Positions 1-53,862 of a DNA stretch of 64,000 nt are shown here, one piece after another. The DNA is from a virus. The stretch lies in the IMG/VR virus record IMGVR_UViG_3300022204_000005. One strand, given 5' to 3'. Under the pieces are notes generated by a model, which had not been told where the DNA came from, searched no databases, and worked only from the letters and a program-made list of their open reading frames with translations. How positions within the stretch are numbered: position 1 is the first letter of the stretch; each line of letters starts with the position of its first letter. The position numbers and the translations under genes are program-made.

Positions 1-112
1 CACACTAACTAACCTTAGTGCGTTCAAGAGAGGATTATTCCTATCCTCTGCTTAACCCAAAGCGGCCCCTCTCCCCCATCGGGGGAAGGGTGCCAAACCA
101 CGGAGCTAAACC

Positions 113-523
113 ATGACTACCCGCATTCAACTCACAAACGCCGCCCTTCAAAACATCTTCGGGGATCACTTCGCCGCCGTCCGCGAGGCGGGCCGCTGGG
201 AATCCCACGGAACCGTCGCCCTTCAACGGGTGAGGGGGGCCACCTGGGAGGTCGTGGGGGCGACGGCGGCGGTGGAGGCGGCGGTGGTGGCCGACCTCCG
301 CGAGGGGGTCATCAAACTCGGTCACCTCGCCCTCAAGGGCGTCCACGGTGACTACAAAATCACCGTCTCGCCCCGGTCCCTCGACGGTAGCGGGTGGCTC
401 GCCGTCGCGAAGGGGGAGGGGCGTCCCCTCTGCCGGACGGGGCAGACGGCCTCGATGGCGGTCGCCGCCGTCCAGGGGGAGATTCGGAGGGCGGAACACC
501 ACCGCGAACGCAAAGCCTCCTAG
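113..523 (+). CDS. hypothetical protein
   Basis: ORF track; GGAG SD upstream; first of a co-oriented gene run; no family recognised. Confidence 0.65.
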   Translation: MTTRIQLTNAALQNIFGDHFAAVREAGRWESHGTVALQRVRGATWEVVGATAAVEAAVVADLREGVIKLGHLALKGVHGDYKITVSPRSLDGSGWLAVAKGEGRPLCRTGQTASMAVAAVQGEIRRAEHHRERKAS

Positions 524-528
524 CCTAG

Positions 529-587
529 CCTCTAAGGTCGCCCCCCTGGGAGGGAGGGGGGCGGGTCGGTTCGATTCCGGCCAGAGG
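529..587 (+). ncRNA. tRNA-like element (acceptor-like stem + one GC arm + T-arm)
   Basis: CCTCT/AGAGG closing stem; CGCCCCC/GGGGGCG arm; GGTCGG-TTCGATT-CCGGCC T-arm. Confidence 0.5.
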
Positions 588-674
588 TTTTAAGGTCACG
601 ACGGTCATTGTGATTGTCGGGCCACAACCGCCCCACTGCTTTAGCGGGGGCACCATCACAACGGAGCTTTACCG

Positions 675-1109
675 ATGTCTGACAACAACACCATTCATGG
701 CTTTCCCTGCACCGACACCGACACCGACGGCGTTGTGTTCGTGAACACGACGCCTCACGAAGTGAAGATCTACGGGGAGGGGGGAGAGCTTCTCTTCTCC
801 ATCCCCGCCCCCGGCAAGGGCGGTCCCTCGGTGAGGGTTCGGGAGAGGTGTGAACGGGTGGGAACCGTGGGGGGCGTCCCCACGGTGATTCTCACCCCCG
901 CTGGGGTGGAGGGGCTCCCCGCCCCGGGGGAGAATGTGTTTTATGTCATCTCGGGGATGGCCCTCGACAACCTCCGACAGGGGGGGGACGAGCGGGGGGA
1001 CGTGATCGCCCCTGTCACCTCCCCCGACGAAAACGTCCCGGAGGAGTTCCGGCCCCTCCGGGACCCCGTAAAGGGGTGGATTCTCGGGGCGAGGGCTTGG
1101 CGCTGCTAA
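675..1109 (+). CDS. conserved phage hypothetical protein (N-T/L-TPH motif type)
   Basis: VFVNTTPHEVKI...GLPAP...YVIS pattern recalls a widespread phage family; GGAG SD. Confidence 0.65.
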   Translation: MSDNNTIHGFPCTDTDTDGVVFVNTTPHEVKIYGEGGELLFSIPAPGKGGPSVRVRERCERVGTVGGVPTVILTPAGVEGLPAPGENVFYVISGMALDNLRQGGDERGDVIAPVTSPDENVPEEFRPLRDPVKGWILGARAWRC

Positions 1110-1162
1110 GCCCTTCCTGACCCCCGCTTCTGCGCCCCCCTCCCCCCCGTGGGGGGTTTCTC

Positions 1163-1196
1163 TTGAGGGCATTAGCTTCGCTGCTAGTGCCTTCAA
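1163..1196 (+). repeat. conserved intergenic hairpin copy 1 (RNase III-like site)
   Basis: GAGGGCATTAGC-loop-GCTAGTGCCTTC; same stem at 3150 and 4508. Confidence 0.8.
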
Positions 1197-1231
1197 AAGA
1201 AGCCCTAACCATCAACTAGAGGAGTCTTACC

Positions 1232-1567
1232 ATGCCGACCCCTATTCACCTCCCAAAGTGCTGCCCCTCTTGTGGGGAGCCTTTTAACGGCACCCCACCT
1301 GGGGAGGTCATGGAGTTCTATATCGAAGACCTCGCTTTCGACGAGGGTAACGGCGGGGCAGTAACGCTTTGGGGGTGGAGTTGCCCTCGAAGCTCCCAGA
1401 AAGGCGACCATCTCATTTATGGGACGGTCGTTAAAGCCAGGGATGGGGAGGGTAACATCACTGAGATGTTATCCACTGACCATTCTTACCTGACGGACCT
1501 TCCGGGTCGGGAGTGGTCAGTGTACCCCCTGACCGACCCGACGACCTTTGTCATCAAAACCAACTAG
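1232..1567 (+). CDS. hypothetical protein (CxxC near N-terminus)
   Basis: ORF track; TAGAGGAGTCTTACCATG start context, identical to that at 1580. Confidence 0.7.
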   Translation: MPTPIHLPKCCPSCGEPFNGTPPGEVMEFYIEDLAFDEGNGGAVTLWGWSCPRSSQKGDHLIYGTVVKARDGEGNITEMLSTDHSYLTDLPGREWSVYPLTDPTTFVIKTN

Positions 1568-1579
1568 AGGAGTCTTACC

Positions 1580-2167
1580 ATGCTCACCACCGACAAGCTC
1601 CCCCTCCCCGATTTCTTCGCGGTCGAAAACATCCATCGCGGGGCTCGCAACCTCGCCAAAATCCACGCCAACATGGGTACCCCGTGGGGAACCTTCGTCG
1701 CCGTGGCGTTGCATATGCGGCACCACGCCCCGGTCAGGCCGAAAACCATGACCTTGGAGTCGCTTTTCGAGGCGGCGCTGGAGAAGCGCCCCGAGCCCGT
1801 GTGGTTCGTGGAGGCCGTTTCGCCCCACCTTCGGGAGCGGCTGTTGGGGATGGTGGAAGCCTCCCTCCACTGCATCCTGGCAGACTGTGAGGAGCTTCGA
1901 GGCTATCAGGAGTGGGCGGAAATGTTCGATAGCCTCTGCGAGCGCAGAGAGATGATGCAGGCGTGCATCCAATTAATGCAGGACACCCCCGAATACGCCA
2001 TTGCGAGGGAAACGGCGCGGGAAATCGATGGGGTTATTGAGATGTCCTTCGGGATGTCTCGACCCTACCCCTCCGCTACCGATTTCATGATTTCCGCCGC
2101 CTCGCTCGGTGACGGCTGGTGGATTCCCGAGTTTCCGGGCGGGGAGGTGATTCCTTTCGATTTCTGA
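1580..2167 (+). CDS. hypothetical protein
   Basis: ORF track; TAGAGGAGTCTTACCATG start context. Confidence 0.7.
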   Translation: MLTTDKLPLPDFFAVENIHRGARNLAKIHANMGTPWGTFVAVALHMRHHAPVRPKTMTLESLFEAALEKRPEPVWFVEAVSPHLRERLLGMVEASLHCILADCEELRGYQEWAEMFDSLCERREMMQACIQLMQDTPEYAIARETAREIDGVIEMSFGMSRPYPSATDFMISAASLGDGWWIPEFPGGEVIPFDF

Positions 2168-2180
2168 AGTATTTTCGCTC

Positions 2181-2225
2181 GAAAGTGATCAAATAGGGTA
2201 CGAGACGGTCTATCAAATAGAGGAG
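2181..2225 (+). promoter_or_regulatory. putative phage promoter module X, copy 1
   Basis: GAAAGTGATCAAATAGGGTACGAGACGGTCTAT matches 28877-28909 at 32/33 nt; intergenic. Confidence 0.55.
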
Positions 2226-2300
2226 GTTAAACCCACACAACGAAACCAGTTCCTAACACAACGAAACAAACACAACCACACAACCACAGGAGAAAACACA

Positions 2301-2798
2301 ATGACTACCTTTACCCTCGAAACGAACGGGCTCGTTACGCTCACCTCCCCCAAGACGGGACACCACCGGACCTTCCTTATCCGCACCGAGAAGTGGAAGG
2401 GAAACGGCAAGTGGGCTCCCCGCAAGGTGCGGGTCGTGTCCCTCTTCGTGGGGGACAAGAATACGAATAACAACCATTTCCTCCGCTTCGGGGAGGTGCG
2501 GGAGCAGGGGGGGGAGTATCGTATCCACCTCTTCAAAGAGGTGTATACGAAGGGCGTCCCCAAGAAATTCTGGGGAAAGAAACCCGAGCGAAAGACATTC
2601 GCGGCCTTCGCAAAGCTCCTCGAAGAGCCCGCAAAGGCTGAGGGAGCGGGGGTCAAATTCCTGGCCTCGGTGAAGTGTTGCAGGTGCAACCTGACCTTGA
2701 CGGACCCCGAATCCATCGAAAATGGCTTTGGCGACGAGTGCGCCAAGTACATCCGGCGGGGTGAGGGGCGCACCGAACGCCCGGTCATGGTCGCCTAA
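2301..2798 (+). CDS. DUF6011-like Zn-finger protein
   Basis: C-terminal CCRCNLTLTDPESIENGFGDEC motif; AGGAG SD. Confidence 0.7.
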   Translation: MTTFTLETNGLVTLTSPKTGHHRTFLIRTEKWKGNGKWAPRKVRVVSLFVGDKNTNNNHFLRFGEVREQGGEYRIHLFKEVYTKGVPKKFWGKKPERKTFAAFAKLLEEPAKAEGAGVKFLASVKCCRCNLTLTDPESIENGFGDECAKYIRRGEGRTERPVMVA

Positions 2799-2908
2799 CA
2801 GGACTCGCCCCCCCTGGGAGGGAGGGGGCAGTTCTATTGAGCTTACAAGGCTAACGCTTTGTGGGTTCACTAGAGCTAACACCACACAACCACACCACAG
2901 GAGCCCTT

Positions 2909-3133
2909 ATGTACACATCACTCATCAAACAACTCAAGAAGCACGCTCTCGCCCACTACGAGGAGGGGGGGTGGGATTTCCTCGTCGAGTGCTGGGATGA
3001 CTGGGAAATCGAGGAGGAACTTTCCTCGAAGGAACTCGAACCCGATGACTTCGAGGGGGCTAAGGCTCACTTCTGCCGCGTTCTCGGCATCGTCGACGAG
3101 CGGAGGACGGAGGTACAGTCCTTTATCTTCTGA
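2909..3133 (+). CDS. hypothetical protein, paralog of 11599..11841
   Basis: KHALAHYEEG...RRxEVQSFIF shared with 11599; start moved to ATG after AGGAG SD. Confidence 0.75.
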   Translation: MYTSLIKQLKKHALAHYEEGGWDFLVECWDDWEIEEELSSKELEPDDFEGAKAHFCRVLGIVDERRTEVQSFIF

Positions 3134-3148
3134 GTGTGAGGCGTAACC

Positions 3149-3179
3149 CGAGGGCATTAGCTCCGCGCTAGTGCCTTCG
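3149..3179 (+). repeat. conserved intergenic hairpin copy 2
   Basis: GAGGGCATTAGC-TCCGC-GCTAGTGCCTTC. Confidence 0.8.
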
Positions 3180-3220
3180 ATAGACCTTCTCACAACCACC
3201 CCAACCTAGAGGAAACTACC

Positions 3221-3817
3221 ATGACCATCATCATCTACAACCGAAACACAAAGCGAATTGAGAAGGCGTCCGTAACGGAATACGACCTCAGAATGGGGAA
3301 GCTGGCGGGGTATGATATGCCCCGTGTGGCCTCCTCTCTGAGAGACGGCGACGTTCGCAGGTGTCGGGGTCGGCACATCTGGAAGATGCACCAGAACCCC
3401 AACGTGGACTATCTCCTCGTGGGGAGTTTGTTCTGGGGAACGCACTTCGGTTCTGCGCCGGGAGATATCGATTTTCTGGCCCTTCCGGTGGCCTATCGCC
3501 CTTCGGGGCAGACCTCCCCGAACTACACCGACCGGGAAGGGGTCATGTACCGTCAGGTCATGCCCGAAGAGTATCGGTCAGACTCGATGTTCGTCATCGG
3601 GTGGCATATCAACCGCTCGGGGTGGCACCGAACGGAGGCCCTGGGGATTCATGAAATGGTCCCCTATGACAAAGCTATCGCGGAGGACTATAGAAAAGTC
3701 TTCCTGAAGTTCGCCAAGAGTGGACTCTTGTCCATCACGCCTCGTGAGAGGCACCACGGGCTCTGGACTCTGTTTCTGGAGCAAGCGAGGAAAGAACGAT
3801 GCAACAAATCCGAGTAA
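3221..3817 (+). CDS. hypothetical protein
   Basis: ORF track; TAGAGGAAACTACCATG start context. Confidence 0.7.
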   Translation: MTIIIYNRNTKRIEKASVTEYDLRMGKLAGYDMPRVASSLRDGDVRRCRGRHIWKMHQNPNVDYLLVGSLFWGTHFGSAPGDIDFLALPVAYRPSGQTSPNYTDREGVMYRQVMPEEYRSDSMFVIGWHINRSGWHRTEALGIHEMVPYDKAIAEDYRKVFLKFAKSGLLSITPRERHHGLWTLFLEQARKERCNKSE

Positions 3818-4497
3818 CCCAAGACTACGACGCCCCCAACCCCCTGAGCCTGAGCGACTTCGAGTTCATCGAGTTCTCTTCTAGAGAGCAGCGGGAGAAC
3901 TACGAAGAAATGCGCGAAGAGGACCTTGAAGGGCGCGAGGAAATCCGCCCTTCCTGGCAGTGCGACCGCTACAAACACGGGGACGTTATCTGGTCCCTTT
4001 CCGGGGAGGGTTCGCAGTGCCGTTGGGATACGGCTCTGGGTGCCGGTATCCTTCTCTTCAACGGCACCGAGGAGATTGACCCCGACGACCTCGACGACCA
4101 CGCCAGGGAGTTTCTGAAACTTTACACGGAGTGGTGTAACGGGTATGTTTACTATGTGGAGGTCGAGATGGATGGAGAGGTGCAGGGGGACGGTCGGCAG
4201 TATGCCGATATGATTTCCCAAAACCTCGAAGAGAGGGGGGTCAAGGGCGACCTCGAAGCCCTTACCTATTCCGCCCTGAGGAACTTCGGGGAGTGGACTC
4301 CTATCCCTAACCAAGAGGAAACTACCACCACCGACGACCCTAACATCTGTCATGGGGTCCATACTTACTACAACGAAGCGGGAGAAAAGATCGTCGAGAG
4401 CGCCCCCGTGTTTATCTGCCCCGTGTGCGGCCATTGGCAGGACCCTGGGGGGCCGTGCCTCGGATGTGAAGCCATCGCCTCCCATAAATCCCGGTAA
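3799..4497 (+). CDS. hypothetical protein (C-terminal CxxC...CxxC)
   Basis: ORF track; overlaps upstream stop; acidic phage-type composition. Confidence 0.7.
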   Translation: MQQIRVTQDYDAPNPLSLSDFEFIEFSSREQRENYEEMREEDLEGREEIRPSWQCDRYKHGDVIWSLSGEGSQCRWDTALGAGILLFNGTEEIDPDDLDDHAREFLKLYTEWCNGYVYYVEVEMDGEVQGDGRQYADMISQNLEERGVKGDLEALTYSALRNFGEWTPIPNQEETTTTDDPNICHGVHTYYNEAGEKIVESAPVFICPVCGHWQDPGGPCLGCEAIASHKSR

Positions 4498-4506
4498 GGA
4501 GTAAAC

Positions 4507-4538
4507 CGAGGGCATTAGCTTCATTGCTAGTGCCTTCG
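4507..4538 (+). repeat. conserved intergenic hairpin copy 3
   Basis: GAGGGCATTAGC-TTCATT-GCTAGTGCCTTC. Confidence 0.8.
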
Positions 4539-4607
4539 ATTGATTCACTTACCACAACCGCCCCACCCCCCGAAGGGAGGGGGCACCTTAACCAAGAGGA
4601 AACTACC

Positions 4608-5366
4608 ATGACCACCGACAACAACACCGCCACCGCCAAGACCGAAGTCGTCCTCACCGCCACGCAGGCGGCGTTGATTGAGATGCTCACCGAAAACACG
4701 GGGGTTCACTTCCTCGACTCGGGGGGTGTCTACGGTCGCGGATGGCAGCGGGCACAGGGGAGGGATTTCCTCTCGGAGCCCGACGCTACCCTCGACAAAT
4801 GGGGCACCCTTTCGGTGTCTTTGTTCCACTTCCTCGACCGTGTTTTGGAGTTCGACGAGGAGGTTAACCAAGTCTTCGAGGACTGGTGTGACCTCAACGA
4901 AGAGGGTGGACTCGGGGCGATGAAACCTTATCTCGACTATCTGGTCGAGTGTGGGTATGAGGGGATCTTCGGGGACGACCCGGAAATCTATAACATCTAC
5001 AACGGCGAGCACGCCGTCGACCAGATTTTCCAATACTTCTGTTGGGTGGGGGACGACGGCGACACCTATGTCTGTCTCAGCATTCACGGGGGGTGTGATG
5101 CTCGGGGAGGGTATACCGACTGTAAGATTTTCCGAGAAATCGAAGAGCACGGAATCCACGATGTGGCCAGGGGTGGCCTTTACTGCGAGGCCGACGGCTG
5201 CGACGCCGGATGGTACACCGACAGCGGTGGATACAACTGGTACGGCAACAACCAAGAGAGGGACTTCAAGGACCCGACCCCCGAACGGGACGAGGACGGC
5301 GAGGAGACGGGGAAATTCCTCTGCCCCTGTTGCGGTAAAGCGACGTTGAAGGCGTCGATGTACTGA
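4608..5366 (+). CDS. conserved phage hypothetical protein (LDSGG..YGR..Q; HGGCDARGGYT motifs)
   Basis: ORF 4524..5366 with start moved to ATG after AAGAGG SD; C-terminal CPCC. Confidence 0.7.
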   Translation: MTTDNNTATAKTEVVLTATQAALIEMLTENTGVHFLDSGGVYGRGWQRAQGRDFLSEPDATLDKWGTLSVSLFHFLDRVLEFDEEVNQVFEDWCDLNEEGGLGAMKPYLDYLVECGYEGIFGDDPEIYNIYNGEHAVDQIFQYFCWVGDDGDTYVCLSIHGGCDARGGYTDCKIFREIEEHGIHDVARGGLYCEADGCDAGWYTDSGGYNWYGNNQERDFKDPTPERDEDGEETGKFLCPCCGKATLKASMY

Positions 5367-5438
5367 GCCCGACTCTTCACAGCACAAACACACCGCCCCT
5401 CTAGAGTATAGGGGGGTTACAACCACTAGGAGAAACTG

Positions 5439-5729
5439 ATGGTAACTTTGGAAGCATTGCGAGTAGTGATCTTCGAGGTCTTCGAGGACCATATCGCCCC
5501 CTCCAACCCTAAATGGGCGTTGGAGAGAATCAAGGAAGGCACCTTTACCGGGGAGACGGACCCTGGGGAATGGTGCCCCGAGGCGGCATTCATCGTCCAC
5601 ACCGAAAATGGTATTCCGTCGGGGTACTACTACCCTGGCCTTCATACCCTTTGGGAGGAGGTGTGCGAAAGGTGCGACCTGCACCTCGAATATGTCAACG
5701 CGGCGGTAATCGCCCTCTGTGAACCTTAA
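5439..5729 (+). CDS. hypothetical protein
   Basis: ORF track; AGGAG SD. Confidence 0.65.
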   Translation: MVTLEALRVVIFEVFEDHIAPSNPKWALERIKEGTFTGETDPGEWCPEAAFIVHTENGIPSGYYYPGLHTLWEEVCERCDLHLEYVNAAVIALCEP

Positions 5730-5739
5730 AGGAGTAGAT

Positions 5740-6240
5740 ATGAAAGATTCAACCAAGCTCTTCCTTCGGGAAGATGATAGATTCTCTCTCAAATATGGGG
5801 TGGACTACACCTCCATGACCAAATACGGGGAAGTCCACCTCTTCACCTGCGAGATGTTCAAGGAGTCCCTTGAAGAGGGGATGAAAGCCTGTGGGGAGCA
5901 TTACGACTCCATCACGGTACTTCGGTACTACGGTGGAGTAAAGAACTACCCCCGACCGCACTACAAAGCCTTCCCCGTCACCGACTCCGCAGACTACCCC
6001 TGTGGGACCCTGGAGGGGTTTGACAAAGCCTACTCCTACGGACCCGACTCGGGGCTCTATGCTCTGGCTCAACCGCGAGAGAAGGCCAAACGCTTCGCTC
6101 ACGGAGGTATCCATCTCCACCCCACCCTTGGTGAGGTTATGGTGGCCAACATTCACCCTTGCGGTGGTGTCCGTTGGTTTCTGTATCTCTCCGAGTTGGA
6201 GGACCACCCGGAAATCCTGAAGTGGTTCGGGTTCCTCTAG
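5740..6240 (+). CDS. hypothetical protein
   Basis: ORF 5719..6240, start moved to ATG after AAGGAG SD. Confidence 0.7.
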   Translation: MKDSTKLFLREDDRFSLKYGVDYTSMTKYGEVHLFTCEMFKESLEEGMKACGEHYDSITVLRYYGGVKNYPRPHYKAFPVTDSADYPCGTLEGFDKAYSYGPDSGLYALAQPREKAKRFAHGGIHLHPTLGEVMVANIHPCGGVRWFLYLSELEDHPEILKWFGFL

Positions 6241-6280
6241 AGGTCTATTGGCTAACGGGGGTTCGATTCCCCCAAGACCT
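6241..6280 (+). ncRNA. tRNA minihelix-like element (closing stem + T-arm)
   Basis: AGGTCT/AGACCT closing stem; GGGGG-TTCGATT-CCCCC T-arm; intergenic. Confidence 0.45.
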
Positions 6281-6310
6281 TCTAACCTTTAAGCAAAAGG
6301 AGCCTAAGCG

Positions 6311-6952
6311 ATGTATACCGTACAAGAATGTAAAGACTTCATTGTCCTTATCGAGAAGTACGCCCAAAGGTCTGAAGACCTCGCCAACAATCTGGAGATG
6401 CTGGAGAAATGCAAAGAAGTTTTGCTTTCGCTCCCCGTCTCTATTGGCATGGCTCTGGGGTTCATGAGGAACAGCCCCAACAAAGAGCTAAGGGCTTTCT
6501 GCGAAGAGCGACGGCTCCCTATGGGTGCCTTTCTGCTTGAATGCGCGGATAGGGAGAAGTGGGTGAACTATGATGAACCTCTGTTCCAACCAAGGCAATG
6601 GTTTCACATTCGCAACGGGTACCTGAGTGTTGGGATGGGCGTGGTCCCATACAACTTCGGAGACACCTATTCCAAACGGGGACAAGACAAAGTCTTGGAT
6701 TATGTCTGGGCTAACTGCCCCGCGTCGATGTCCAATGCGCAAGATTTCTTGCAAGAGGGCGTCGAGTATCATATGCTCACCAGGGAGCCCGACAGTTACC
6801 TTCGGGACCATGCCTGGAATGATGAGGATGTTGCAGTGACCCGCCGTAACATCCGAATAAACGAGTGCTTGCCGTATTCCCTGGCCCCCGCCCAGGTCTA
6901 TCGGCAGGATAACGGCCTGGACCTTTGGATTTACAGCAAAGACCGCTACTAG
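6311..6952 (+). CDS. hypothetical protein
   Basis: ORF track; AAGGAG SD. Confidence 0.7.
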   Translation: MYTVQECKDFIVLIEKYAQRSEDLANNLEMLEKCKEVLLSLPVSIGMALGFMRNSPNKELRAFCEERRLPMGAFLLECADREKWVNYDEPLFQPRQWFHIRNGYLSVGMGVVPYNFGDTYSKRGQDKVLDYVWANCPASMSNAQDFLQEGVEYHMLTREPDSYLRDHAWNDEDVAVTRRNIRINECLPYSLAPAQVYRQDNGLDLWIYSKDRY

Positions 6953-6960
6953 GAGCCTAT

Positions 6961-7281
6961 ATGTACCACGTTCGTGTACTTCTAAGAATTCTGGAGTCGA
7001 GAGGCTTCCCCACTCCCCACCATAACCCTTACGAGGAGATTCCCTACATCAAAGAGTTCTGGTCCGAAGAGGTTTCGGGTCGGGAGGGGGACCGTATCGC
7101 TTGTATCTATGCCCTTACCCTTTTCTTCTTGGATAGGGTAGAGTTGACACCGCAAGAGCGAGAGGCTATCCTCTACATCCGAGACATGGCCGAGGCTAGG
7201 CCCGAAGCCATGCACTATCGAGATATGCAGCTGGGCGCAGCTTTGTTTATGCTGAAAACTTTCATGATCCCCAACCACTAG
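6961..7281 (+). CDS. hypothetical protein
   Basis: ORF 6925..7281, start moved to ATG after AGGAG SD. Confidence 0.65.
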   Translation: MYHVRVLLRILESRGFPTPHHNPYEEIPYIKEFWSEEVSGREGDRIACIYALTLFFLDRVELTPQEREAILYIRDMAEARPEAMHYRDMQLGAALFMLKTFMIPNH

Positions 7282-7292
7282 GAGAAACTACC

Positions 7293-7691
7293 ATGACCGA
7301 CAATAACACCCTTTTCATCATCCGTGGACTCCCCGGAAGTGCCAAAACCACCTTGGGTAAGATGCTCTCCGAGCAGACTTTCGCTGCCGATGATTTCTTC
7401 GAGGAGGAGGACGGGTCATACAACTTCGACCCCGCCAAACTCGGGGAGGCGCACGGGTTTTGGAAAATCCGAGTCGAGCAGGCTCTTGCCCACAAATGCC
7501 CGGTGGTGAGTGTGTGTAACACGTTTACCCAAGCCTGGGAGGCGGCTCCTTACTTCGAGTTGGCAAAGAAGTACGGCTACCGCGTAAGCGTTATCCACTG
7601 TCAAAACGACTTTGGAAACGTCCACGGGGTGCCCGTCGAGGCTATCGAGCGCATGAAAGAGCGCTGGGAGGAAAACATTTGGCCGGTATGA
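7293..7691 (+). CDS. AAA_33-family P-loop kinase (polynucleotide kinase-like)
   Basis: IIRGLPGSAKTT Walker A, AADDFF, VCNTFTQAWE, NVHGVPVEAIERM motifs. Confidence 0.8.
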   Translation: MTDNNTLFIIRGLPGSAKTTLGKMLSEQTFAADDFFEEEDGSYNFDPAKLGEAHGFWKIRVEQALAHKCPVVSVCNTFTQAWEAAPYFELAKKYGYRVSVIHCQNDFGNVHGVPVEAIERMKERWEENIWPV

Positions 7692-7957
7692 AACTCAAAC
7701 AATACCATCTTCTGAAAACCTATTTGGAGTCTTCCATACTAAGCCTGAGCGCACACATAGCGCTCATCAACTATCAAATGGAGAACACCCCGCAACAAAC
7801 GCGCCTGCTGAAAAAGGTCAGGAAGAAGCTCAAGAAAGAGAGGAAAATTCTACGAGAGCAACTCTCGGCTCTTGTGGATTCTCAACGACTCCAAGTCATC
7901 ACCCAGGGGCTTCAATCATACGAAGCCTATAGAAACCTGAAACGTAAGGAGCAATAA
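7688..7957 (+). CDS. hypothetical basic protein
   Basis: ORF track; ATGA overlap with upstream stop. Confidence 0.6.
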   Translation: MKLKQYHLLKTYLESSILSLSAHIALINYQMENTPQQTRLLKKVRKKLKKERKILREQLSALVDSQRLQVITQGLQSYEAYRNLKRKEQ

Positions 7958-7959
7958 CT

Positions 7960-8340
7960 ATGTACGGATGGAATAAAAAAGGCAGCAAGTGGGACTCTAA
8001 CGAGGACGACTGGTGGGAGGGCTCGGAGCCCGAATACAACACCCCCGAAGAGGCTAAAACAGCCCTGATGGAAGCGGCCAAGCGCGAAATCCTCACGGGG
8101 AATAGCGGCTACCCCCTCTGGGGCTCTATCTTCCAAGGGGAAATCAACCACAAGGCGGAAGTCTCCGGGGATATCATCGCTATCGAGGAGTTCTGCCTTG
8201 TCGAGGGTAACGAAGCCCTTAGAGAGGCTGACCGTCGGGCTGACCGCCAGGAATACGCCATGCAGGCAGGCATGGCTTTTGGCTGCGACGGCTACAACGA
8301 TGCTATGGGGTATGGCAGCGACGACCGGGGGGACTGGTGA
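7960..8340 (+). CDS. hypothetical protein
   Basis: ORF track; AAGGAG SD. Confidence 0.7.
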   Translation: MYGWNKKGSKWDSNEDDWWEGSEPEYNTPEEAKTALMEAAKREILTGNSGYPLWGSIFQGEINHKAEVSGDIIAIEEFCLVEGNEALREADRRADRQEYAMQAGMAFGCDGYNDAMGYGSDDRGDW

Positions 8341-8573
8341 CGAGAAACCCCCCTCTCCAACCCTTTCGTAGCGGCACCTTTACCTACAAGGGGTGCCGCT
8401 ACACCGAGGTAGAGGCAGCGTTCTTTTTCCGAAAAGGGCGCTTGACAGTCACCCTATTGGGCGGCTATAAAGAACACCTCCACGATGGAGAGTCAATCTG
8501 GCTCTTCGTCAACACACTGCCGGATATCCCGGCGAAAAGACTACTCAAACACAGAGTGAGGACTAACCCATGA
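8337..8573 (+). CDS. hypothetical protein
   Basis: ORF track; GTGA overlap with upstream gene. Confidence 0.55.
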   Translation: MTRNPPLQPFRSGTFTYKGCRYTEVEAAFFFRKGRLTVTLLGGYKEHLHDGESIWLFVNTLPDIPAKRLLKHRVRTNP

Positions 8574-9214
8574 GCGACAACCTTTCCTACGCCTTTATCA
8601 ACGGCCAGCCCCGGAACTACGATTTCTCATCGGAGGCTTACGACGCTGACCAGATGGGCAGGGGATGGTCCTCTCCCCAACCGGACTTCACCGGTTGGGA
8701 TATCGAAGACCTGTACAACCTCATCTCCGACAATAATATCGAAGGGACTTTCGAGGAGGAGACGGGAGAGGCATTCCCCGATACGGTCGCCGCCCTCGAA
8801 GACCTCGACATTGACTAGGAGGCGCTTATCGACCTTCTCGACGAATACTATTCCGAAAATCAGGACGAACTCTATCCCCTCATGGGCTATCTCCTCCCCG
8901 CCAGAGGGGACGGCGGTGGTTTGCAAGCGGCCCTCTTGGGGACCTGCCTTGTGGCGGTAGAGGTGTGGGGAGAGACTTACATGGCCCTCGCTGCGGGGGG
9001 GATGGACCTCTCGTGGGATATTTGCGAAGCCTACATCTCCCTTGGCTACTACCCCCCCGCTCATTACTGCGACCTCCCCCGTATGGCTGGGAGGGGGCTT
9101 TCGCCCAAGGACAAAGCCACCATCAAAACCTGTAAAGAGTCTATCAAGGTTGTCATGGAGCAGTTCCAGGCGCGTATCGACCACCTGACCGAAATGGAGA
9201 ACCGGGAAAAATGA
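8570..9214 (+). pseudogene. single reading frame split by one in-frame TAG (8816-8818): nonsense allele or readthrough
   Basis: ORFs 8570..8818 and 8882..9214 are in frame and joined by 21 sense codons (EALIDLLDEYYSENQDELYPL); no SD before ATG 8882. Confidence 0.55.
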
Positions 9215-9699
9215 ATAAATTCCGTTGGCTTATCCAACGAGTAAATCTACGGGCCAAGGGGGGAGCCCCCCGAGAGGGGGTGGACAATAAATTCAGCATG
9301 GATTATATGGGCGCTTCCGAATTTGAATTTGGAACGCTCCCCAAGGTGTTGGCCCGGATGCGGGAACACCTCGAAGCCTTCGAGATCAAACGAATTAAAC
9401 TCCCGACCGGGGAGGTTGCCTGGGCACTTTCGGTGCCCGAAGATTACGAGGAGGTAAAGGCATTCTTTCAACAGGAGTTAGAGGAGCCTAACCGGCTCCT
9501 GAAAATGCCCTCACTGCTAAGGCTTTCCTACGAGGAGGTGAAACCCTATTCAGAAATCATTGGGTGGTGGGCTATCGACGAATCTGTTGGAGCCTATCCT
9601 GACCGGGAGTACGTCACTCCCTGGGTAATGTTCAAGAAAAAATCAATGGCCAAAGATTTCCTCAAAGGACTTAAGGCCAAACCCACAGAGAACAACTAA
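9211..9699 (+). CDS. conserved phage hypothetical protein (DYMGASEFEFG motif)
   Basis: ORF track; ATGA overlap. Confidence 0.7.
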   Translation: MNKFRWLIQRVNLRAKGGAPREGVDNKFSMDYMGASEFEFGTLPKVLARMREHLEAFEIKRIKLPTGEVAWALSVPEDYEEVKAFFQQELEEPNRLLKMPSLLRLSYEEVKPYSEIIGWWAIDESVGAYPDREYVTPWVMFKKKSMAKDFLKGLKAKPTENN

Positions 9700-9956
9700 T
9701 GACATACTTCATCGTAGACAAAGACCTCATCGACGACGGACTCCTCAACGGAAGGACCTACGGGGGGGAACAGGCACCCGAAGGGGTGGAGCCCACCCGA
9801 TTCCGTCTCTACGACGACGACAATATCCTCTATTTCGAGGGGAGGGCTTGGCTCCGTCCCGACGATAGCGGATTCGAGATGCAGGATAGCCTTGGTTACA
9901 GCTACGGCTGTACCTCCACGAAGCTCCTCGAAAAGGGCAAGTGGAACATCCTCTAG
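9699..9956 (+). CDS. conserved phage hypothetical protein (FRLYDDDNILYFEG motif)
   Basis: ORF track; TAATG overlap. Confidence 0.7.
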   Translation: MTYFIVDKDLIDDGLLNGRTYGGEQAPEGVEPTRFRLYDDDNILYFEGRAWLRPDDSGFEMQDSLGYSYGCTSTKLLEKGKWNIL

Positions 9957-10046
9957 AGTTTCTTTAGGGGGAGCCTCTTAGTTATGAGGGGCTTCCCATC
10001 CTTTTCACACCACAAACACACTATCTATTCCAAGGAACACACGACT

Positions 10047-11598: not shown

Positions 11599-11841
11599 AT
11601 GACTACCAAAAAGAAACCGACCCCCGAGCAGAAAGAAATCATCAACGGGCTCCAAAAGCACGCTCTCGCCCACTACGAGGAGGGTTGGGATATGCTTTAT
11701 GAGGCTTGGGAGGATTACGAAATCGTGGAAGTCCTCGAAGAAAAGGATATCATGACCTTTGAGGAAGCTCTTGAAGAGTTCACAAAGATCATGGGTATCT
11801 GCGGAGAGCGGAGAGCGGAGGTACAGTCCTTTATCTTCTGA
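11599..11841 (+). CDS. hypothetical protein, paralog of 2909..3133
   Basis: shared KHALAHYEEG and EVQSFIF; CA-rich leader. Confidence 0.75.
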   Translation: MTTKKKPTPEQKEIINGLQKHALAHYEEGWDMLYEAWEDYEIVEVLEEKDIMTFEEALEEFTKIMGICGERRAEVQSFIF

Positions 11842-16561: not shown

Positions 16562-17320
16562 ATGTCTAATACCCAACTACTAAATAAACTAAAGGAGATT
16601 AAACGATACCAATACTGGTGTCTGGGGGGTCAAGTTGTTTTCATTCAGGACATATCCCCCAAACGAATCAAAATTAAAGAGTATACCTTTCAGAAAGTGA
16701 AAAAATCGTGGAGTCTAAATACTTCCCGATACTTTTACACAATGTTAGGTAAAGGGTATGACGAGCCCCATTTCAGGATAGAGGAGAAGGCTGCGTGGCC
16801 TTTGACCTATTTCCTTCATGCTTGGACATCCCTTTACCCCGAAGCCTCTATTGAAGAGAGGGCAGAAACAGCCCGGAAGTTTGTAGAGGGTGAACTGAAT
16901 AACATTTTGGAGGTGGCTAGGACCTGTCTGTATGAGGAAGAGAAACCCTATCTCCTCTCTAGCCTAAAAGAGGCAATACTACCCCACAAAAAGAAGACTA
17001 CATGGGATGGGTATCCCATTGTCATAGAGTACCTTCGTCAAAACGGCGTCTGGCTTCTGACAGAGGAAGATGAAAGAGCCCTATCCAGAGTGTTTTATGA
17101 AACCTTCCACGCTCAAAGTAGATTCACCCGAGAGTACAGATATCTTGAAAGAGTCATAGTGATTCATGGCTTTAGGGCGTTTCCCGAAAGAGAAATCGGG
17201 AGAGTCTGTGCTGAGATACTTTCCCTACACGGTATGGACCTTGACTACTTGGCTTCCGAAGCCTTTTCACCCACTCAGAAGGACAGCGAAAGATGGCAGA
17301 CCATTTTGGGAAATCCCTAA
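16562..17320 (+). CDS. hypothetical protein
   Basis: ORF 16430..17320, start moved after CA-rich leader. Confidence 0.65.
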   Translation: MSNTQLLNKLKEIKRYQYWCLGGQVVFIQDISPKRIKIKEYTFQKVKKSWSLNTSRYFYTMLGKGYDEPHFRIEEKAAWPLTYFLHAWTSLYPEASIEERAETARKFVEGELNNILEVARTCLYEEEKPYLLSSLKEAILPHKKKTTWDGYPIVIEYLRQNGVWLLTEEDERALSRVFYETFHAQSRFTREYRYLERVIVIHGFRAFPEREIGRVCAEILSLHGMDLDYLASEAFSPTQKDSERWQTILGNP

Positions 17321-17793
17321 GCGGAGAGGACTTCTCTAACCAAGACCTTCAAGACGACAACTTTGATGAGTGTCGTCTTGAAAAAACAAACTTTGAGAGC
17401 GCAAATCTTTATGGAGTGGGACTCTCTTGGAGTGTGCTTACAGAAGCGAACTTTAAGGGGGCTACACTGAAGTGGGCTGATGTACACTCCTCTTACGGTA
17501 TTGGAGCCTCCTTTGAAGATGCCGATTGTGAGTCGGCTAACTTCACAGACTGTAAACTGAGAGGAGCCTCTTTTAAAGGGGCAAATCTTTCTCACGCAGA
17601 ACTCTATAACGCCTCTCTTCAGAAAGTCGATTTTCGGGGAGCCGATCTTTCTGGTGCAAACCTTTCTCACGCAGACCTGACAGGAGCGGACCTTAGAGGA
17701 GCTATCCTTGACGGAGCGCTTATCTATGATGTAGACTTGACGGACGCGAACCTTGAGGGGGTTGACCTCTCTAAAGCCGTGGAAAAGCGATGA
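17293..17793 (+). CDS. pentapeptide repeat protein
   Basis: serial A(N/D)L/F-x-G-A repeats (ANLSHAELYNASLQKVDFRGADLSGANLSHADLTGADLRGA). Confidence 0.9.
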   Translation: MADHFGKSLSGEDFSNQDLQDDNFDECRLEKTNFESANLYGVGLSWSVLTEANFKGATLKWADVHSSYGIGASFEDADCESANFTDCKLRGASFKGANLSHAELYNASLQKVDFRGADLSGANLSHADLTGADLRGAILDGALIYDVDLTDANLEGVDLSKAVEKR

Positions 17794-21663: not shown

Positions 21664-22134
21664 ATGTTTGGACTTTGGAACGATTGCCCCGAAAATGCCA
21701 AAGTTGCTTGGGGAGCCCGAGCCATTCTCAATAATGGCTCAATTGATATCCTTTGGGATAGGCAATCCGCCCGTACACCCAACAAAGAAACCGCTGAGGC
21801 TTTTAACCGAGTCCTTAACAAAGAGGTGCTCCCCGTTGTCCGTAAACGGGTTAAAGAGCTTTGTAACTCTTGTGAGATGAGTGGGAGCGAAAATAAGCTC
21901 TTCACCCTCTACCACAAGCACGGTATCACCGTATACGGTAACACAAACGGAAGCCACGGGTATCTCTACTTGATTGGCTTCGTGGACCATGATATCATGG
22001 ACGGAGCCGAGGTGCCCCCGCTGGGTTCTATCGTCGGTGTAACCAGTCAAGTGATTGGTTACACTACCTATATGGGTCGACAACTGCTTTGCCTGAGCCA
22101 AGGTTCTGGTAAATCTAAAATCAAGGAGCTGTAA
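21664..22134 (+). CDS. hypothetical protein
   Basis: ORF track; CA-rich leader and GGAG SD. Confidence 0.7.
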   Translation: MFGLWNDCPENAKVAWGARAILNNGSIDILWDRQSARTPNKETAEAFNRVLNKEVLPVVRKRVKELCNSCEMSGSENKLFTLYHKHGITVYGNTNGSHGYLYLIGFVDHDIMDGAEVPPLGSIVGVTSQVIGYTTYMGRQLLCLSQGSGKSKIKEL

Positions 22135-23401: not shown

Positions 23402-23863
23402 ATGAAATACCCTATACTTGTTCAACTAGGAAATTTCTCCGGGTATGTAATCACATACCCGGATTTCCCCGAACTGAAGTCTTACACGAAAAACATTGGC
23501 GAGGTCACAAAGGTAGCCGAAGAAGACCTTTGCGCTTGGGCAAAAAAGATGGTGGACCGAGGCAAGACTCTACCGGAACCTACCGATTACAAAATCGTCG
23601 ATAAGCAGAAACCCAGAGGAAATACAGTTCTCTTCGTCTCTATACCGGATACGCCAAAAACAAAAGCCACTAAGAAAACCATTGCGGTGGTATTCAAAGT
23701 CACACTCCATTCTTCTGGGTCAGAGGAATTGTCCCCCGAAAGGATTGAGGATTTGGTATCGGACCTTGACTACACCATCCGAGAGAGTGTAGACTCGGAC
23801 GGTAAGGTCATGGTTTGGGACACAGAACTATGTCGCTGGACTGAAGACCTCTCTATACTATAA
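23402..23863 (+). CDS. HicB-like antitoxin-domain protein (orphan)
   Basis: MKYPILV...GYVITYPDFPEL...AEEDL....GKTLPEPT matches the HicB N-terminal pattern; no adjacent HicA. Confidence 0.7.
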   Translation: MKYPILVQLGNFSGYVITYPDFPELKSYTKNIGEVTKVAEEDLCAWAKKMVDRGKTLPEPTDYKIVDKQKPRGNTVLFVSIPDTPKTKATKKTIAVVFKVTLHSSGSEELSPERIEDLVSDLDYTIRESVDSDGKVMVWDTELCRWTEDLSIL

Positions 23864-33918: not shown

Positions 33919-34107
33919 AACCTTTCACCCCCGAGTCAGGGACTGTGTTGCACAGTGGATACGTAAGGACTTCTGTTCCAGGGAATCCTTACGTAAGCCT
34001 CACGCCAATGCTTATTAGAGCTGGAACCTCTAAAGGGATTGGTTTGCGACTTATTGAGGTTCGATACCTCAGTCGGGGAACTTTTTTCCTACAGGAGCAC
34101 ACGAACA

Positions 34108-34599
34108 ATGATTTACGAACTACACAAACAAAACTTTGAGATTGACAAATGCGCTGTCTTTCGTAGAACACGAGATGAGTTTGGTGCTCTGTCCAATATG
34201 GCCAAAGGATTCCCCATCTCCTTTATGGGGGAAACCTGGGATTCATCGGAAGCCCTATACCAGTCCTTTAGATTCCCCGATAAACCGGGGATTAAAGAAG
34301 AGATCCGTCTTGCGGAGTCTCCGATGGAATCCAAAAGGGTTTCGAGGTCCTTTGACTCTTTGACTCGACCGGATTGGGAAGTGATAAGAGGCAAAGCGAT
34401 GCGGCTTTCGCTTATCTCAAAGTTCTCTCAAAACCCACAAGCCCTAGAGGTGTTGAAAAGCACCGGACATAAAATGATTGTGGAATATTCGGTCCACGAT
34501 GATTTTTGGGGAGCCCACCCTACGGAAGATGAAAATATCTTGCATGGGTTCAATATGTTAGGCCGACTTCTGGTAGAAGTACGAAACAATTGGCCATGA
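34108..34599 (+). CDS. NADAR family protein (YbiA-like)
   Basis: FGALSNM...SSEALYQS.RF...K.SQNP.....L..TG...IVE.S..DDFWG...G.NMLGRLL.EVR. Confidence 0.85.
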   Translation: MIYELHKQNFEIDKCAVFRRTRDEFGALSNMAKGFPISFMGETWDSSEALYQSFRFPDKPGIKEEIRLAESPMESKRVSRSFDSLTRPDWEVIRGKAMRLSLISKFSQNPQALEVLKSTGHKMIVEYSVHDDFWGAHPTEDENILHGFNMLGRLLVEVRNNWP

Positions 34600-47853: not shown

Positions 47854-48639
47854 ATGACACACACCACACACACACTTCTCCCCGCCCTTGTTGAGAGACT
47901 CAAAGCTTCCAAATCTGAGCGCCCTCAGTCATGGTTGTCTATGGGGAAAACATTCTTTAAAAAGAATGGTATCGACCCCAACCCTGTCGGACCCAATAAT
48001 CGAAAAACGGGTGTTGCAGGGACCTATGCCAAAGTAGGTGAGACCTGCCCCTCTACTTGTCCTTATCTGGATAACGGATGCTATGCTCAACATGGGCAAG
48101 TCAATATGCATCAAAATCGTGCAGTCACTGAGCTTGAGCCCAGCTTGAGTGCTGCGGCATTGGCGATGTATGCGTCCATTAGAGGGAAGAGTATCACCCG
48201 TTTGCATGTAAGCGGAGATTTTGGTAATAACAACACTATTTGGGTTGACTATATCCTTGGCCTTTGTGAGCTTGCCTCTAGCCTTAAAGAGCTTATGGGT
48301 ATTGACTCTAAAGAGGTTGTAGCCTTTACATACACTCATTTCCCTAAAGAGACCTTTGAGCCCTATAGACTCCTTTTGAAAGCTCATGGTATCTCGGTTG
48401 TCTATTCAGACATTATAGAGGTAGGTGGGGCTATCGTAGCCAATAGCTCTGATATCCCCCGACTTCGGGGAGAGTCCGGGCTTTTGATTAAGCAATGCCT
48501 TAATCAGACTGCAGACGTCTTGTGTAAAGATTGCACTTGGTGTTGGACCTTTGAGAGGCGTAAACTTATTGTCGCTTTTGACCCTCATGGGTCTAAAGGT
48601 AAAACCGTACAAAAGACGGTGGCTGAGCTATGGAAGTGA
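47854..48639 (+). CDS. Gp88/DUF7227-like Cys-rich phage protein (possible metal/Fe-S cluster)
   Basis: NRKTG...TCP..CPY..NGCYA, RLHVSGDF, FTYTH, C...C..C..CW motifs; start uncertain (47809 possible). Confidence 0.55.
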   Translation: MTHTTHTLLPALVERLKASKSERPQSWLSMGKTFFKKNGIDPNPVGPNNRKTGVAGTYAKVGETCPSTCPYLDNGCYAQHGQVNMHQNRAVTELEPSLSAAALAMYASIRGKSITRLHVSGDFGNNNTIWVDYILGLCELASSLKELMGIDSKEVVAFTYTHFPKETFEPYRLLLKAHGISVVYSDIIEVGGAIVANSSDIPRLRGESGLLIKQCLNQTADVLCKDCTWCWTFERRKLIVAFDPHGSKGKTVQKTVAELWK

Positions 48640-53775: not shown

Positions 53776-53804
53776 TTGACAACCCCCACCCCCTCTACTA
53801 CACT
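53776..53804 (+). promoter_or_regulatory. sigma70-type promoter with 13-bp inverted repeat
   Basis: TTGACA-17-TACACT; CACCCCCTCTACT/AGTAGAGGGGGTG. Confidence 0.7.
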
Positions 53805-53862
53805 TCAAAAAGTAGAGGGGGTGCTGCTCTACTTACACAAACACACTACAGGACATCAAACC

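Follow-up and report, generated by a model that had tools for sequence, protein, structure and literature searches.

Early mRNA of phage T7 is cut by RNase III, the double-strand-specific endonuclease of its host, at repeated hairpins that lie between genes. Panganiban and Whiteley are said to have described, in 1983, comparable sites in the early mRNA of the Bacillus phage SP82, which are cut by Bs-RNase III. The ideal substrate for RNase III is a helix of 22 bp (PMC3867540), and the enzyme requires the loop, whatever its sequence, to lie at least 11 bp from the cut (PMC1540722). Hairpins before early phage genes can also be promoters: in the N4 type, a hairpin on the template strand stands at a fixed distance from +1 and has a stem of 4-7 bp and a 3-nt loop that is conserved, with a purine at its centre (PMC4496689, PMC9163698), and nine such early hairpin promoters have been described in LUZ7 (PMC9163698). 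Here we describe nine copies of a ~22-bp RNA hairpin between the first ~14 genes of an uncultured sediment phage, a family that is new in sequence and familiar in design.

The window, by which we mean the whole stretch of 64,000 nucleotides that was analysed, had been described in a first-pass annotation as carrying three copies of an intergenic hairpin with a 12-14-bp stem, at 1165, 3150 and 4508. These copies exist exactly as claimed, all on the + strand and all matching GAGGGCATTAGC-N5/6-GCTAGTGCCTTC, a pattern that 0 of 100 dinucleotide shuffles match (0 expected by chance); however, the family has nine members and its helix, through pairing of the flanks, generally reaches 18-23 pairs. 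The motif search that the same annotation had proposed gave no further near-copy in the 64-kb window with up to 3 mismatches allowed, but diverged and upstream copies were found, namely one diverged copy at 2839-2868, another at the very start of the window and four copies upstream on the same contig, at most 2 kb before the window (Table 1). All nine have the same orientation. Each is flanked by a stop codon and the next SD/ATG, as had been noted for the first three, and the start codon follows 37-90 nt later. Together they fill nine of the first 13 intergenic gaps with which a ~72-kb array of genes, all on one strand, begins. A 24-nt core is identical in six copies, and the loops vary in sequence and length (TTCGCT, TTCGTT, TCCGC, TTCATT and TAAC; 4-6 nt). 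The earlier description of an invariant stem with a variable loop holds for the three identical copies, but the diverged c5 and c9, in which 7-11 of the 24 core positions differ from the canonical sequence, keep only the fold; pairs 14 and 21 of c5 are compensatory, and the core of c9 has 13 pairs, four of them G.U.

Table 1. Members of the hairpin family and neighbouring elements; positions are those of the window unless L032 is given.
Feature	Position	Strand	Sequence	Flanking stop; next ATG	Remarks
Four upstream copies	L032 4253, 4590, 4874, 5235	+
c5, diverged	core -2..25; extended helix -11..34 (1..34 inside window); L032 5945-5990	+	core GAGCACACTAAC-TAAC-CTTAGTGCGTTC		18 pairs; 51.2 bits on L032; 5' end just outside window
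tRNA-like element	514..590	+			ARAGORN: tRNA-Pro GGG; gap between genes F and G
GC-rich hairpin before c6	1137..1164 (L032 7093-7112)	+	CCCCC-CGTG-GGGGG, then T-tract TTTCTCTT		intrinsic-terminator-like
c6, type A	1153..1206; core 1165-1194	+		1107-1109; 1232	23 pairs, one C x A mismatch; -33.1 kcal/mol, z -8.8; 71.5 bits
GC-rich hairpin before c9	2808..2828	+	CCCCCCTGGGAGGGAGGGGG, then T-rich tail		directly upstream of c9
c9, diverged	2830..2877; core 2839-2868	+	core GAG-CTTACAAGGC-TAAC-GCTTTGTGGG-TTC	2798; 2909	21 pairs in total; 51.6 bits (+), 12.8 (-)
c7, type B	3149..3179; core 3150-3178	+		3133; 3221	5-nt loop; only ~13 pairs; no GC hairpin upstream
c8, type B	4499..4546; core 4508-4537	+		4495-4497; 4608	19 pairs; 65.5 bits; extended helix reaches the stop codon
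GC-rich 5'-leader hairpin	4560..4585	+	GCCCC...GGGGC		between c8 and SD; 36-nt blocks common to the c2 and pre-A cassettes

The upper half of the helix is the core of 12-13 bp and the lower half is built by the flanks (c7, with ~13 pairs, excepted), and a conserved G-C/A-U/G.U box (GAG...UUC) lies at the base of the core, near mid-helix. In a 22-pair model, 86.9% of cells are paired and 11 pairs have compensatory double changes; none of 500 shuffles attained the observed pairing and covariation, and slid controls reached 37-48%. The only interruptions are 1x1 mismatches, at columns 8/43 (c3, c6), 5/46 (c1, c5) and 13/38 (c2, c4). Covariation of the basal pair of the core, an earlier claim, was borne out, pair 10 being U-A in four and C-G in four distinct rows, and the lower stem covaries even among copies of type A, at columns 2-4 and column 8. 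This lower-stem covariation requires core and 5' flank to share a strand, and so indicates that the RNA would begin upstream of the hairpin. All of this covariation comes from within the family, no relatives offering independent covariation having been found.

The structure is that of the sense strand. Pairing falls from 86.9% on this strand to 77.1% on the - strand, and core mismatches rise from ~4 to ~19. Of the individual pairs, number 13 is absent from the - strand altogether and number 18 is lost in 6 of 8 rows. The model scores the + strand at 51-71 bits and the - strand at 13-44, and the + strand also folds more strongly, with energies from -23 to -33 kcal/mol and z from -4 to -9. The better pairing of the + strand argues that the structure is real and belongs to the sense strand, most likely as RNA. 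The first-pass annotation had reasoned similarly from two conserved G-U pairs, which do become A x C on the - strand; from three identical stems that argument is weak, and only the diverged members strengthen it, with ~six independent G.U events among the sense-strand asymmetries against one A x C.

Searches beyond the contig gave no second occurrence of the family. The hairpin pattern had 0 matches in a scan of viral contigs, 31 matches in ~10 unrelated sequence groups among metagenome contigs, which lack the outer GA...TTC and are consistent with chance, and 10 single-copy chance matches in unrelated genomes among genome contigs; the single-copy genome matches and the unrelated metagenome groups rule out a host repeat of the REP/BIME type. 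Half-element scans of viral contigs returned 1 and 24 matches, none fitting our hairpin model (R1), and Rfam gave no match at gathering score, only generic miRNA-precursor models appearing, far below threshold, at E up to 5. Of the 1525 homologues of gene N, the nearest is 40% identical; no related loci of this gene were found among viral contigs, and the R1 hairpin was absent from five homologue contexts (L034-L036, L049-L052), where sigma-70 promoter cassettes are found.

Further elements accompany the hairpins. Copies c1, c3, c6 and c9 stand directly after terminator-like GC hairpins, the T-tract of which, such as TTTCTCTT before c6, doubles as the 5' strand of the lower stem; no motif was found to be shared after terminators elsewhere in the contig. 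GC-rich leader hairpins of the type at 4560..4585, which are candidate 5'-end protective structures, also occur after c1, c2 and c5 and before genes A and G. The gap between genes F and G, the one early gap that has no hairpin, holds a tRNA-like element that matches no Rfam family, E values up to 1 included, and that may be an alternative punctuation signal; its central arm (541-560) repeats a 20-mer of the GC hairpin before c9.

By analogy with T7, the family may well be an RNase III-type processing and stability signal, which is the best of the readings considered and one that we hold tentatively and at a little below even confidence. The RNase III of the host would cut the hairpins as it does at the T7 early sites, so that early transcripts, if long or produced by read-through, would be divided gene by gene. 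The message on the upstream side would have its 3' end at the adjoining GC-rich hairpin and be protected by it, and the downstream message would begin just before its own leader, with a second GC hairpin guarding the 5' end in four cases. Following the minimal T7 R1.1 substrate, cuts are predicted ~11 bp below the loop-proximal U-A/U.G step, between columns 9 and 10 and between columns 43 and 44, which in c6 would fall between window positions 1163 and 1164 and between 1197 and 1198. Since no + strand promoter was found upstream of the array, a polycistronic transcript, with the early array as one transcription unit, is assumed here.

The geometry fits RNase III, with ~22 bp, at least 11 bp from predicted cut to loop and freely varying loops. 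The core also contains the block C-G, A-U, U.G, U-A of T7 R1.1, the canonical distal box included; the U19-A32/U18.G33 step is present in seven of the nine copies, as is A-U at position 2 of the proximal box, these boxes being determinants for the E. coli enzyme, which disfavours G-C at proximal-box positions 2 and 4, and perhaps not for that of the present host. However, 14.5% and 15.8% of pair permutations attain the resemblance to the distal box and R1.1, the U-A/U.G step itself arising in 15.8%, and after this permutation test the similarity was dropped as statistical evidence. The bare CATT...AGTG pattern occurs in the window at chance frequency only. The earlier proposal of T7-style RNase III punctuation keeps its footing in anatomy and family design, but the distal-box match is within chance. 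Several features count against the RNase III reading. The type B copies have C-G at proximal-box position 4, the pair beside the predicted scissile bond, where C-G suppresses cleavage by the E. coli enzyme (PMC1540722), and c7 has only ~13 pairs; the terminator-like hairpins before c1, c3, c6 and c9 would stop part of transcription; the corresponding slot in the distant relatives L034 and L049 is taken by a terminator and a sigma-70 promoter; and the 24-nt identity of six cores is not needed by RNase III, and suggests a sequence-specific partner or recent recombination.

The overlap of terminator T-tract and lower stem could also be a design in itself, in which the U-tract of the terminator serves as the 5' strand of an RNase III-type lower stem and the GC hairpin and long hairpin act as a unit. 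We consider such a coupled module unlikely. Terminated transcripts would end at the GC hairpin, and read-through transcripts would fold the long helix, be cut and be trimmed back to the same GC hairpin. If this is true, every early message would acquire the same protected 3' end with or without termination, and the next message would be freed with its own leader. We know of no description of a terminator fused to a processing site as a repeated design.

It is equally unlikely that each early gene is a promoter cassette of terminator, promoter, leader and gene, as in the PeSLs of T4 or in the distant relatives L034 and L049, with a hairpin that is or overlaps the promoter, either of N4/LUZ7 type and extruded from supercoiled DNA or for another phage RNA polymerase. 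The hairpin does occupy the slot between terminator-like hairpins and start codons that, between the small early genes of L034 and L049, is filled by a terminator and then a sigma-70 promoter (TTGAC-N17/18-CATAGT), and the early region has no canonical + strand promoter, its four canonical promoters facing leftward. As in N4 (P1-P3) and among the early and middle promoters of LUZ7, several hairpins lie at the leading end of the genome before early genes, and non-conserved stem bases can change while pairing holds. In contrast to those promoters, it is the sense strand and not the template strand that forms the better hairpin here, with stems of 12-23 bp and variable loops of 4-6 nt rather than 4-7 bp and a conserved loop of 3 nt (PMC4496689, PMC9163698). 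A polymerase that reads sequence would not tolerate the 7-11 core changes of c5 and c9, the covarying lower stem puts the 5' flank on the folded strand, and there is no conserved sequence upstream of the hairpin. No gene for an RNA polymerase or sigma factor, nor for RNase III or a double-stranded RNA-binding protein, was recognised among the ~50 larger ORFs scanned, and no giant virion polymerase gene is present on the 77.5-kb contig, whose ends do not overlap and which need not be the whole genome; the largest ORF in the window (715 aa) encodes an FtsH-like protein. A scan of the hairpin gaps, supplemented by eye, found no sigma-70-like -35/-10 match; sigma-54-like GG/GC spacing on the - strand was a poor fit, and an N4-type reading of the GC hairpins was rejected as the distance from loop centre to first core G varies from 14 to 20 nt and gives no fixed ruler. 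The PeSL cassettes of T4-type phages (PMC2839356, PMC4122927) share with this locus the composite of stem-loop, conserved element, SD and start, and they too flank small, mostly ORFan early genes, but their conserved element is a sigma-70 promoter and here it is a 22-bp hairpin.

Wobble pairs are common protein-recognition features, and the conserved G.U and GAG/UUC box at mid-helix, together with a stem that is invariant across six or seven copies and a loop that is their sole variable part, might mark an RNA site for a sequence-specific phage protein. Such a protein could be a regulator of translation or stability, or an N-like antiterminator acting past the next GC-hairpin terminator, terminator-like hairpins recurring downstream of each copy. 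We regard this as quite unlikely, because c5 and c9 retain the fold and not the sequence, the terminator of the first gene lies before the first hairpin, so that polymerase already reads through unaided, and a persistent antitermination complex would not need nine sites at which to reload; none of the early ORFs was recognised as encoding an RNA-binding protein. The antitermination-protein site suggested in the first-pass annotation was not supported in its boxA form, the rrn/lambda-type signal of a boxB hairpin next to a boxA: CTTTAAC lies beside c1 only, no boxA-like partner motif is common to the copies, and the motif shows no enrichment, with 5 occurrences against 4.8 expected. What is shared downstream of the hairpins is a CA-rich leader.

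The palindrome might instead act at the level of DNA, as an operator for a dimeric regulator or as a mere recombination joint of the kind seen at PeSL boundaries, the RNA fold having no role. Inverted half-sites of 12 bp with a nearly constant spacer of 4-6 bp would suit the former, and mosaic exact blocks of 36-65 nt with a junction inside the 3' arm the latter, c2 consisting of the left part of c4 and the right part of c8. Against this, nearly all asymmetries are of G.U type on the sense strand (the ~six events against one), the orientation is single in nine of nine copies, the half-sites of c5 and c9 change together, and covariation continues through ten further pairs in the flanks, far past an operator footprint, which makes a purely DNA-level role very unlikely. 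The copies are nonetheless also recombination joints between gene cassettes, and recombination at them helps to account for the six identical cores. That the hairpin is a back-up terminator lacking a U-tract, or a 3'-end stabiliser or exonuclease block behind the GC hairpin, is highly improbable in spite of its stability and its position directly behind gene ends, where a terminator-like hairpin often stands in tandem with it, since none of the copies is followed by a T-run (AAAAGA or GATTGA comes next), a terminator would need neither conserved sequence nor a mid-helix box, and c7 and c8 have no first (GC) hairpin.

If the hairpins are processing sites, a very long one-strand gene array would be handled largely after transcription, by RNase III-type hairpins in its first 6 kb and by tRNA-like elements elsewhere, and the T7 strategy would extend to a large phage that is unrelated. 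The family, with nine natural variants of which two have diverged strongly yet are isostructural, would offer a compact set of substrates for the study of recognition by an RNase III other than that of E. coli, and the fusion of its members with terminator-like hairpins could reveal how termination and processing combine. The hairpins also mark the exchange points of early, probably anti-defence, gene cassettes.

For comparison, five T7 early sites (R0.3, R0.5, R1, R1.1 and R1.3) were folded. There is no demonstrable homology, the 13 of 20 identities with R1.1 being within chance. The upper stem is a nearly perfect 12-13 bp here, in contrast to 9-10 bp in T7 followed by an asymmetric internal loop at the cut; that loop leads to single-strand cuts in T7, whereas no asymmetric loop is present here. 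A terminator-like hairpin with its T-tract inside the helix occurs at four copies here and never at the T7 sites, and sites are more closely spaced, with nine in 6.3 kb compared with five in 7 kb. Both sets are nevertheless repeated sense-strand families in the gaps between co-directional early genes, and both combine a sequence-conserved upper stem bearing two wobbles with variable loops and a short lower stem built by the flanks, for a total of about two helical turns. In SP82, likewise a large phage, the early transcripts reportedly also contain several mutually homologous hairpins.

The first-pass annotation described three copies of an intergenic hairpin, and the pattern GAGGGCATTAGC-N5/6-GCTAGTGCCTTC does match the window exactly three times (c6, c7 and c8 in the table), always on the + strand, and in 0 of 100 dinucleotide shuffles. 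Each copy was also correctly placed after a stop codon and ahead of the next gene's Shine-Dalgarno sequence and start codon. The count of three falls short, as the family has nine members (c1 to c9) when upstream and diverged copies are included. A motif search of the 64-kb window gave no further near-copy at up to 3 mismatches. Upstream of the window, on the longer contig locus L032 (L032 coordinate = window + 5956), lie two more exact copies and two variants, GGCGGCATTAGC-TTCGTT-GCTAGTGCC(C/T)TC; a diverged copy, c5 (GAGCACACTAAC-TAAC-CTTAGTGCGTTC), crosses the window start, and a structural scan for GAG...TTC-framed hairpins gave c9 (GAG-CTTACAAGGC-TAAC-GCTTTGTGGG-TTC), with 13 pairs, four of them G.U. 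The covariance model R1, built from all nine members, found no tenth in the window, the remaining contig or seven loci from distant relatives, and there was no match for the family in Rfam. Between the first fourteen of the successive + strand early genes (A to O), 9 of 13 gaps are occupied, over a span of 6.3 kb. Four gaps have no member: F|G is taken up by a tRNA-like element, at H|I the Shine-Dalgarno sequence overlaps the preceding stop codon, at L|M the genes themselves overlap, and the fourth is I|J; N|O, the gap that follows the last member, is also without a hairpin. We consider this very probably a newly delimited and genuine family: nine hairpins on the sense strand, each of about 22 bp, punctuating the early genes.

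The F|G element lies directly after the stop of ORF 113-523 and is called tRNA-Pro(GGG) by ARAGORN, with no tRNA match in Rfam even at E up to 1. Upstream of gene A, the sequence CTCTAGG-TTCGTTG...GCCCTTAGATT shares the TTCGTT loop with c2 and c4 and carries a 3' part of the form GCC..T..GATT; it may be a decayed family copy, does not fold into the long helix and is not matched by R1.

The stem had been given as 12-14 bp. A 12-bp stem is indeed present (columns 11-22 with 29-40 of A1, our 50-column alignment), but it is only the upper half of a helix to which the flanks add a lower stem, column i pairing with column 51-i to give 22 pairs in total. Apart from c7, with about 13 pairs, single members have 18-23 pairs with at most 2 mismatches, and are the longest + strand hairpins of the early region. 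On the + strand 86.9% of A1 cells are paired, compared with 72.9% in shuffles; in 11 pairs both partners are changed, none of 500 shuffles attains any of the five measures used, and shifting the partner by 1-3 columns brings pairing down to 37-48%. The lower stem covaries even within type A, the core class with a U-A rather than C-G (type B) basal pair: column pair 8/43 is U-A, C-G or A-U, and columns 2-4 have three or four pair types each, which places the 5' flank on the folded strand. The proposal that the G-U pairs are valid only as + strand RNA is borne out by the reverse strand of the three window copies, which folds more weakly and has two A x C mismatches per stem. In the reverse complement of A1, 77.1% of cells are paired, with pair 13 absent from every row and pair 18 lost in 6 of 8. 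Taken as independent events, the core asymmetries come to about six G.U and one A x C on the sense strand. With R1 the members score 51-71 bits on the + strand and 13-44 bits on the - strand. We conclude that the hairpin structure is real, is on the sense strand and is most simply RNA, the strand call resting mainly on the core, since in the lower stem neither strand pairs better than the other.

The window belongs to a 77.5-kb metagenomic contig (ENA ERZ27296367); L033, assembled independently in Logan, has the identical sequence over window 1188-4565. No overlap between the contig ends was found, and no capsid, terminase or polymerase genes were seen on it; the contig therefore represents only part of a larger phage genome. 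Every credible gene in the window is on the + strand, about ten tRNA genes are present, and GC declines rightward from 0.63 to about 0.45. The + strand array starts with gene A (L032 3924), some 2 kb before the window, and is about 72 kb long; to its left are about 1.9 kb without ORFs, four tandem opposite-facing sigma-70 promoters and a short AT-rich - strand gene block. For one phage contig the GC mosaic is striking, at 0.56-0.69 in the early region (window 1-10000), about 0.45 in the rest and 0.33-0.40 in the leftward block. All four leftward promoters, which lie within 28-nt and 44-nt direct repeats, point to the AT-rich - strand genes, which include that of a 435-aa protein weakly matched to WGR, and none points to the GC-rich + strand array. 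Along the ORF-free stretch, which could be a long structured leader, an ncRNA or an origin region, GC goes from 0.45 to 0.58 and a 59-nt unit occurs twice with CCCTATAGGG palindromes. Database - strand gene calls at L032 4328-4597, 4757-4921 and 5254-5961 look wrong, as opposed to the Shine-Dalgarno-led + strand ORFs found there. The accessory gene set is typical of anti-defence or mobile-element arms.

Coordinates of the hairpin family and of other features of the contig
Feature	Location	Strand	Remark
c6 (type A)	window 1165-1194	+	-33.1 kcal/mol (z -8.8)
c7 (type B)	window 3150-3178	+	-23.5 kcal/mol (z -4.1)
c8 (type B)	window 4508-4537	+	-25.4 kcal/mol (z -6.6)
c9	window 2839-2868	+	
Two exact upstream copies	L032 4253 and 4874	+	
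Two upstream variants	L032 4590 and 5235	+	
Possible decayed copy	L032 3815-3870		
tRNA-like element	window 514-590		fills F|G
Four tandem sigma-70 promoters, near-consensus	L032 1688-1939 (window about -4268 to -4017)	-	TTGTCT-N17-TATAAT twice, TTATCA-N17-TACAAT, TTGGTA-N17-TATATT
Stretch without credible ORF	L032 2000-3900 (window about -3956 to -2056)		
59-nt unit	L032 2366-2424 and 2475-2533		92% identical
Shine-Dalgarno-led ORFs	L032 4346-4549, 4686-4823, 4948-5208, 5302-5919	+	last: 205-aa pentapeptide-repeat protein, strong PHROG matches
Second pentapeptide-repeat gene	window 17293-17793		
Small-gene paralogues	window 2909-3133 and 11599-11841		46-48-nt blocks 85-87% identical; last codons and stop the same
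CbeA-like antitoxin, HicB-like antitoxin, NADAR, SprT-like metalloprotease, DUF932	window 21664-22134, 23402-23863, 34039-34599, 48630-49145, 53776-54975		accessory genes
FtsH-like protease	window 43104-45251		
SSB	window about 59807-60256		

A GC-rich hairpin, in several cases with a UUCG-type loop, stands 0-2 nt upstream of six members and is absent upstream of c7 and c8. At c1, c3, c6 and c9 a consensus scan finds that this hairpin and a T-tract form an intrinsic-terminator-like site, and the T-tract (e.g. TTTCTCTT) doubles as the 5' arm of the lower stem, its partner being AAAAGAAG, downstream of the core. Fusion with terminator-like hairpins is the one unusual feature of the family. A second GC hairpin occurs in the leader after c1, c2, c5 and c8. 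The 20-mer CCCCCCTGGGAGGGAGGGGG is both the central arm of the tRNA-like element and the GC hairpin at 2809-2828. Mosaicism is evident among the cassettes: 65 nt are exactly the same in c3 and c6, and in c2 the left 38 nt recur in c4 and the right 36 nt in c8, the junction lying within the 3' arm. Genes A and N have an identical 36-nt block (L032 3897-3932 and window 4581-4616; ATGACCACC) covering the leader-hairpin end, Shine-Dalgarno sequence, ATG and first three codons, which shows that unrelated genes have exchanged a whole 5' cassette. Such mosaicism makes the hairpin elements also recombination joints, and recombination can explain much of why six cores are exactly identical.

The function that we tentatively favour, by analogy, is RNase III-type cleavage: cutting within the hairpins would split early messages apart, and the adjoining GC hairpins would shield the ends of the released messages, so that these are both separated and stabilised. 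It is unlikely that the hairpin slot, which follows a terminator and precedes a leader, instead carries a promoter, even though T4 PeSLs have an early promoter in this same slot (PMC4122927), distant relatives carry TTGAC-N17/18-CATAGT promoters there (L034 and L049), and no other + strand promoter is visible. The hairpin is on the sense strand, with long stems and variable loops unlike those of N4 and LUZ7 promoters (PMC4496689, PMC9163698); its fold but not its sequence is kept in c5 and c9, its lower stem covaries, and no conserved sequence lies upstream of it. A scan found no sigma-70-like promoter in any of the hairpin gaps. In the relatives, both carriers of a gene N homologue, the promoter TTGAC-N17/18-CATAGT(A) is highly conserved (L034, whole; L049, 200-2320): almost all small early genes have it 8-12 nt ahead of the start codon, often directly behind a terminator hairpin, with 11 copies in L034; early transcripts there would be leaderless or nearly so. 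Doubtful to a greater degree is a binding site for an RNA-binding regulator or antiterminator, which the invariant stem sequence would suit but for which no boxA partner was found and nine reload sites make weak logic. The G.U bias, uniform orientation and 22-pair covariation render a DNA operator or pure recombination joint improbable. A back-up terminator is very improbable, with a T-run after 0 of 9 copies, and a host REP-like repeat is excluded within the collections searched.

RNase III-type processing has a close precedent in design. Folding the five T7 early gaps (NC_001604) gives a repeated hairpin family with an upper stem conserved in sequence (AAGGUC..UC/GAGUGGCCUU) and bearing two wobbles, free loops and a short lower stem, and the design of these RNase III sites and of the nine hairpins is the same. 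The idealised E. coli RNase III substrate is 22 bp, cut at its centre (Nicholson review, PMC3867540). In minimal T7 R1.1 at least 11 bp are required from cut to loop, loop sequence is without effect, and recognition is set by two boxes, a distal one of 2 bp (U-A followed by U.G, the latter a strict requirement) and a proximal one of 4 bp (Pertzev and Nicholson, PMC1540722). Anchored on the distal box, R1.1 and the family core have four consecutive pairs (C-G, A-U, U.G, U-A) and 13 of 20 bases in common, but as, when the core's own pairs are permuted, 14.5% of permutations match some T7 site over four consecutive pairs and 15.8% include the step from U.G to U-A, this resemblance is not beyond chance and indicates compatibility only. 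Mapping by analogy with R1.1 predicts cuts at columns 9|10 and 43|44, which would be window 1163|1164 and 1197|1198 in c6 and 4506|4507 and 4540|4541 in c8, and would make the conserved GAG/UUC box positions 1-3 of the proximal box; on this mapping position 2 is A-U, which is permissive, and position 4 is U-A in type A and C-G in type B, the latter a pair that suppresses E. coli RNase III cleavage (PMC1540722). The hairpins are a sequence family without relatives, of a kind of element that is already known.
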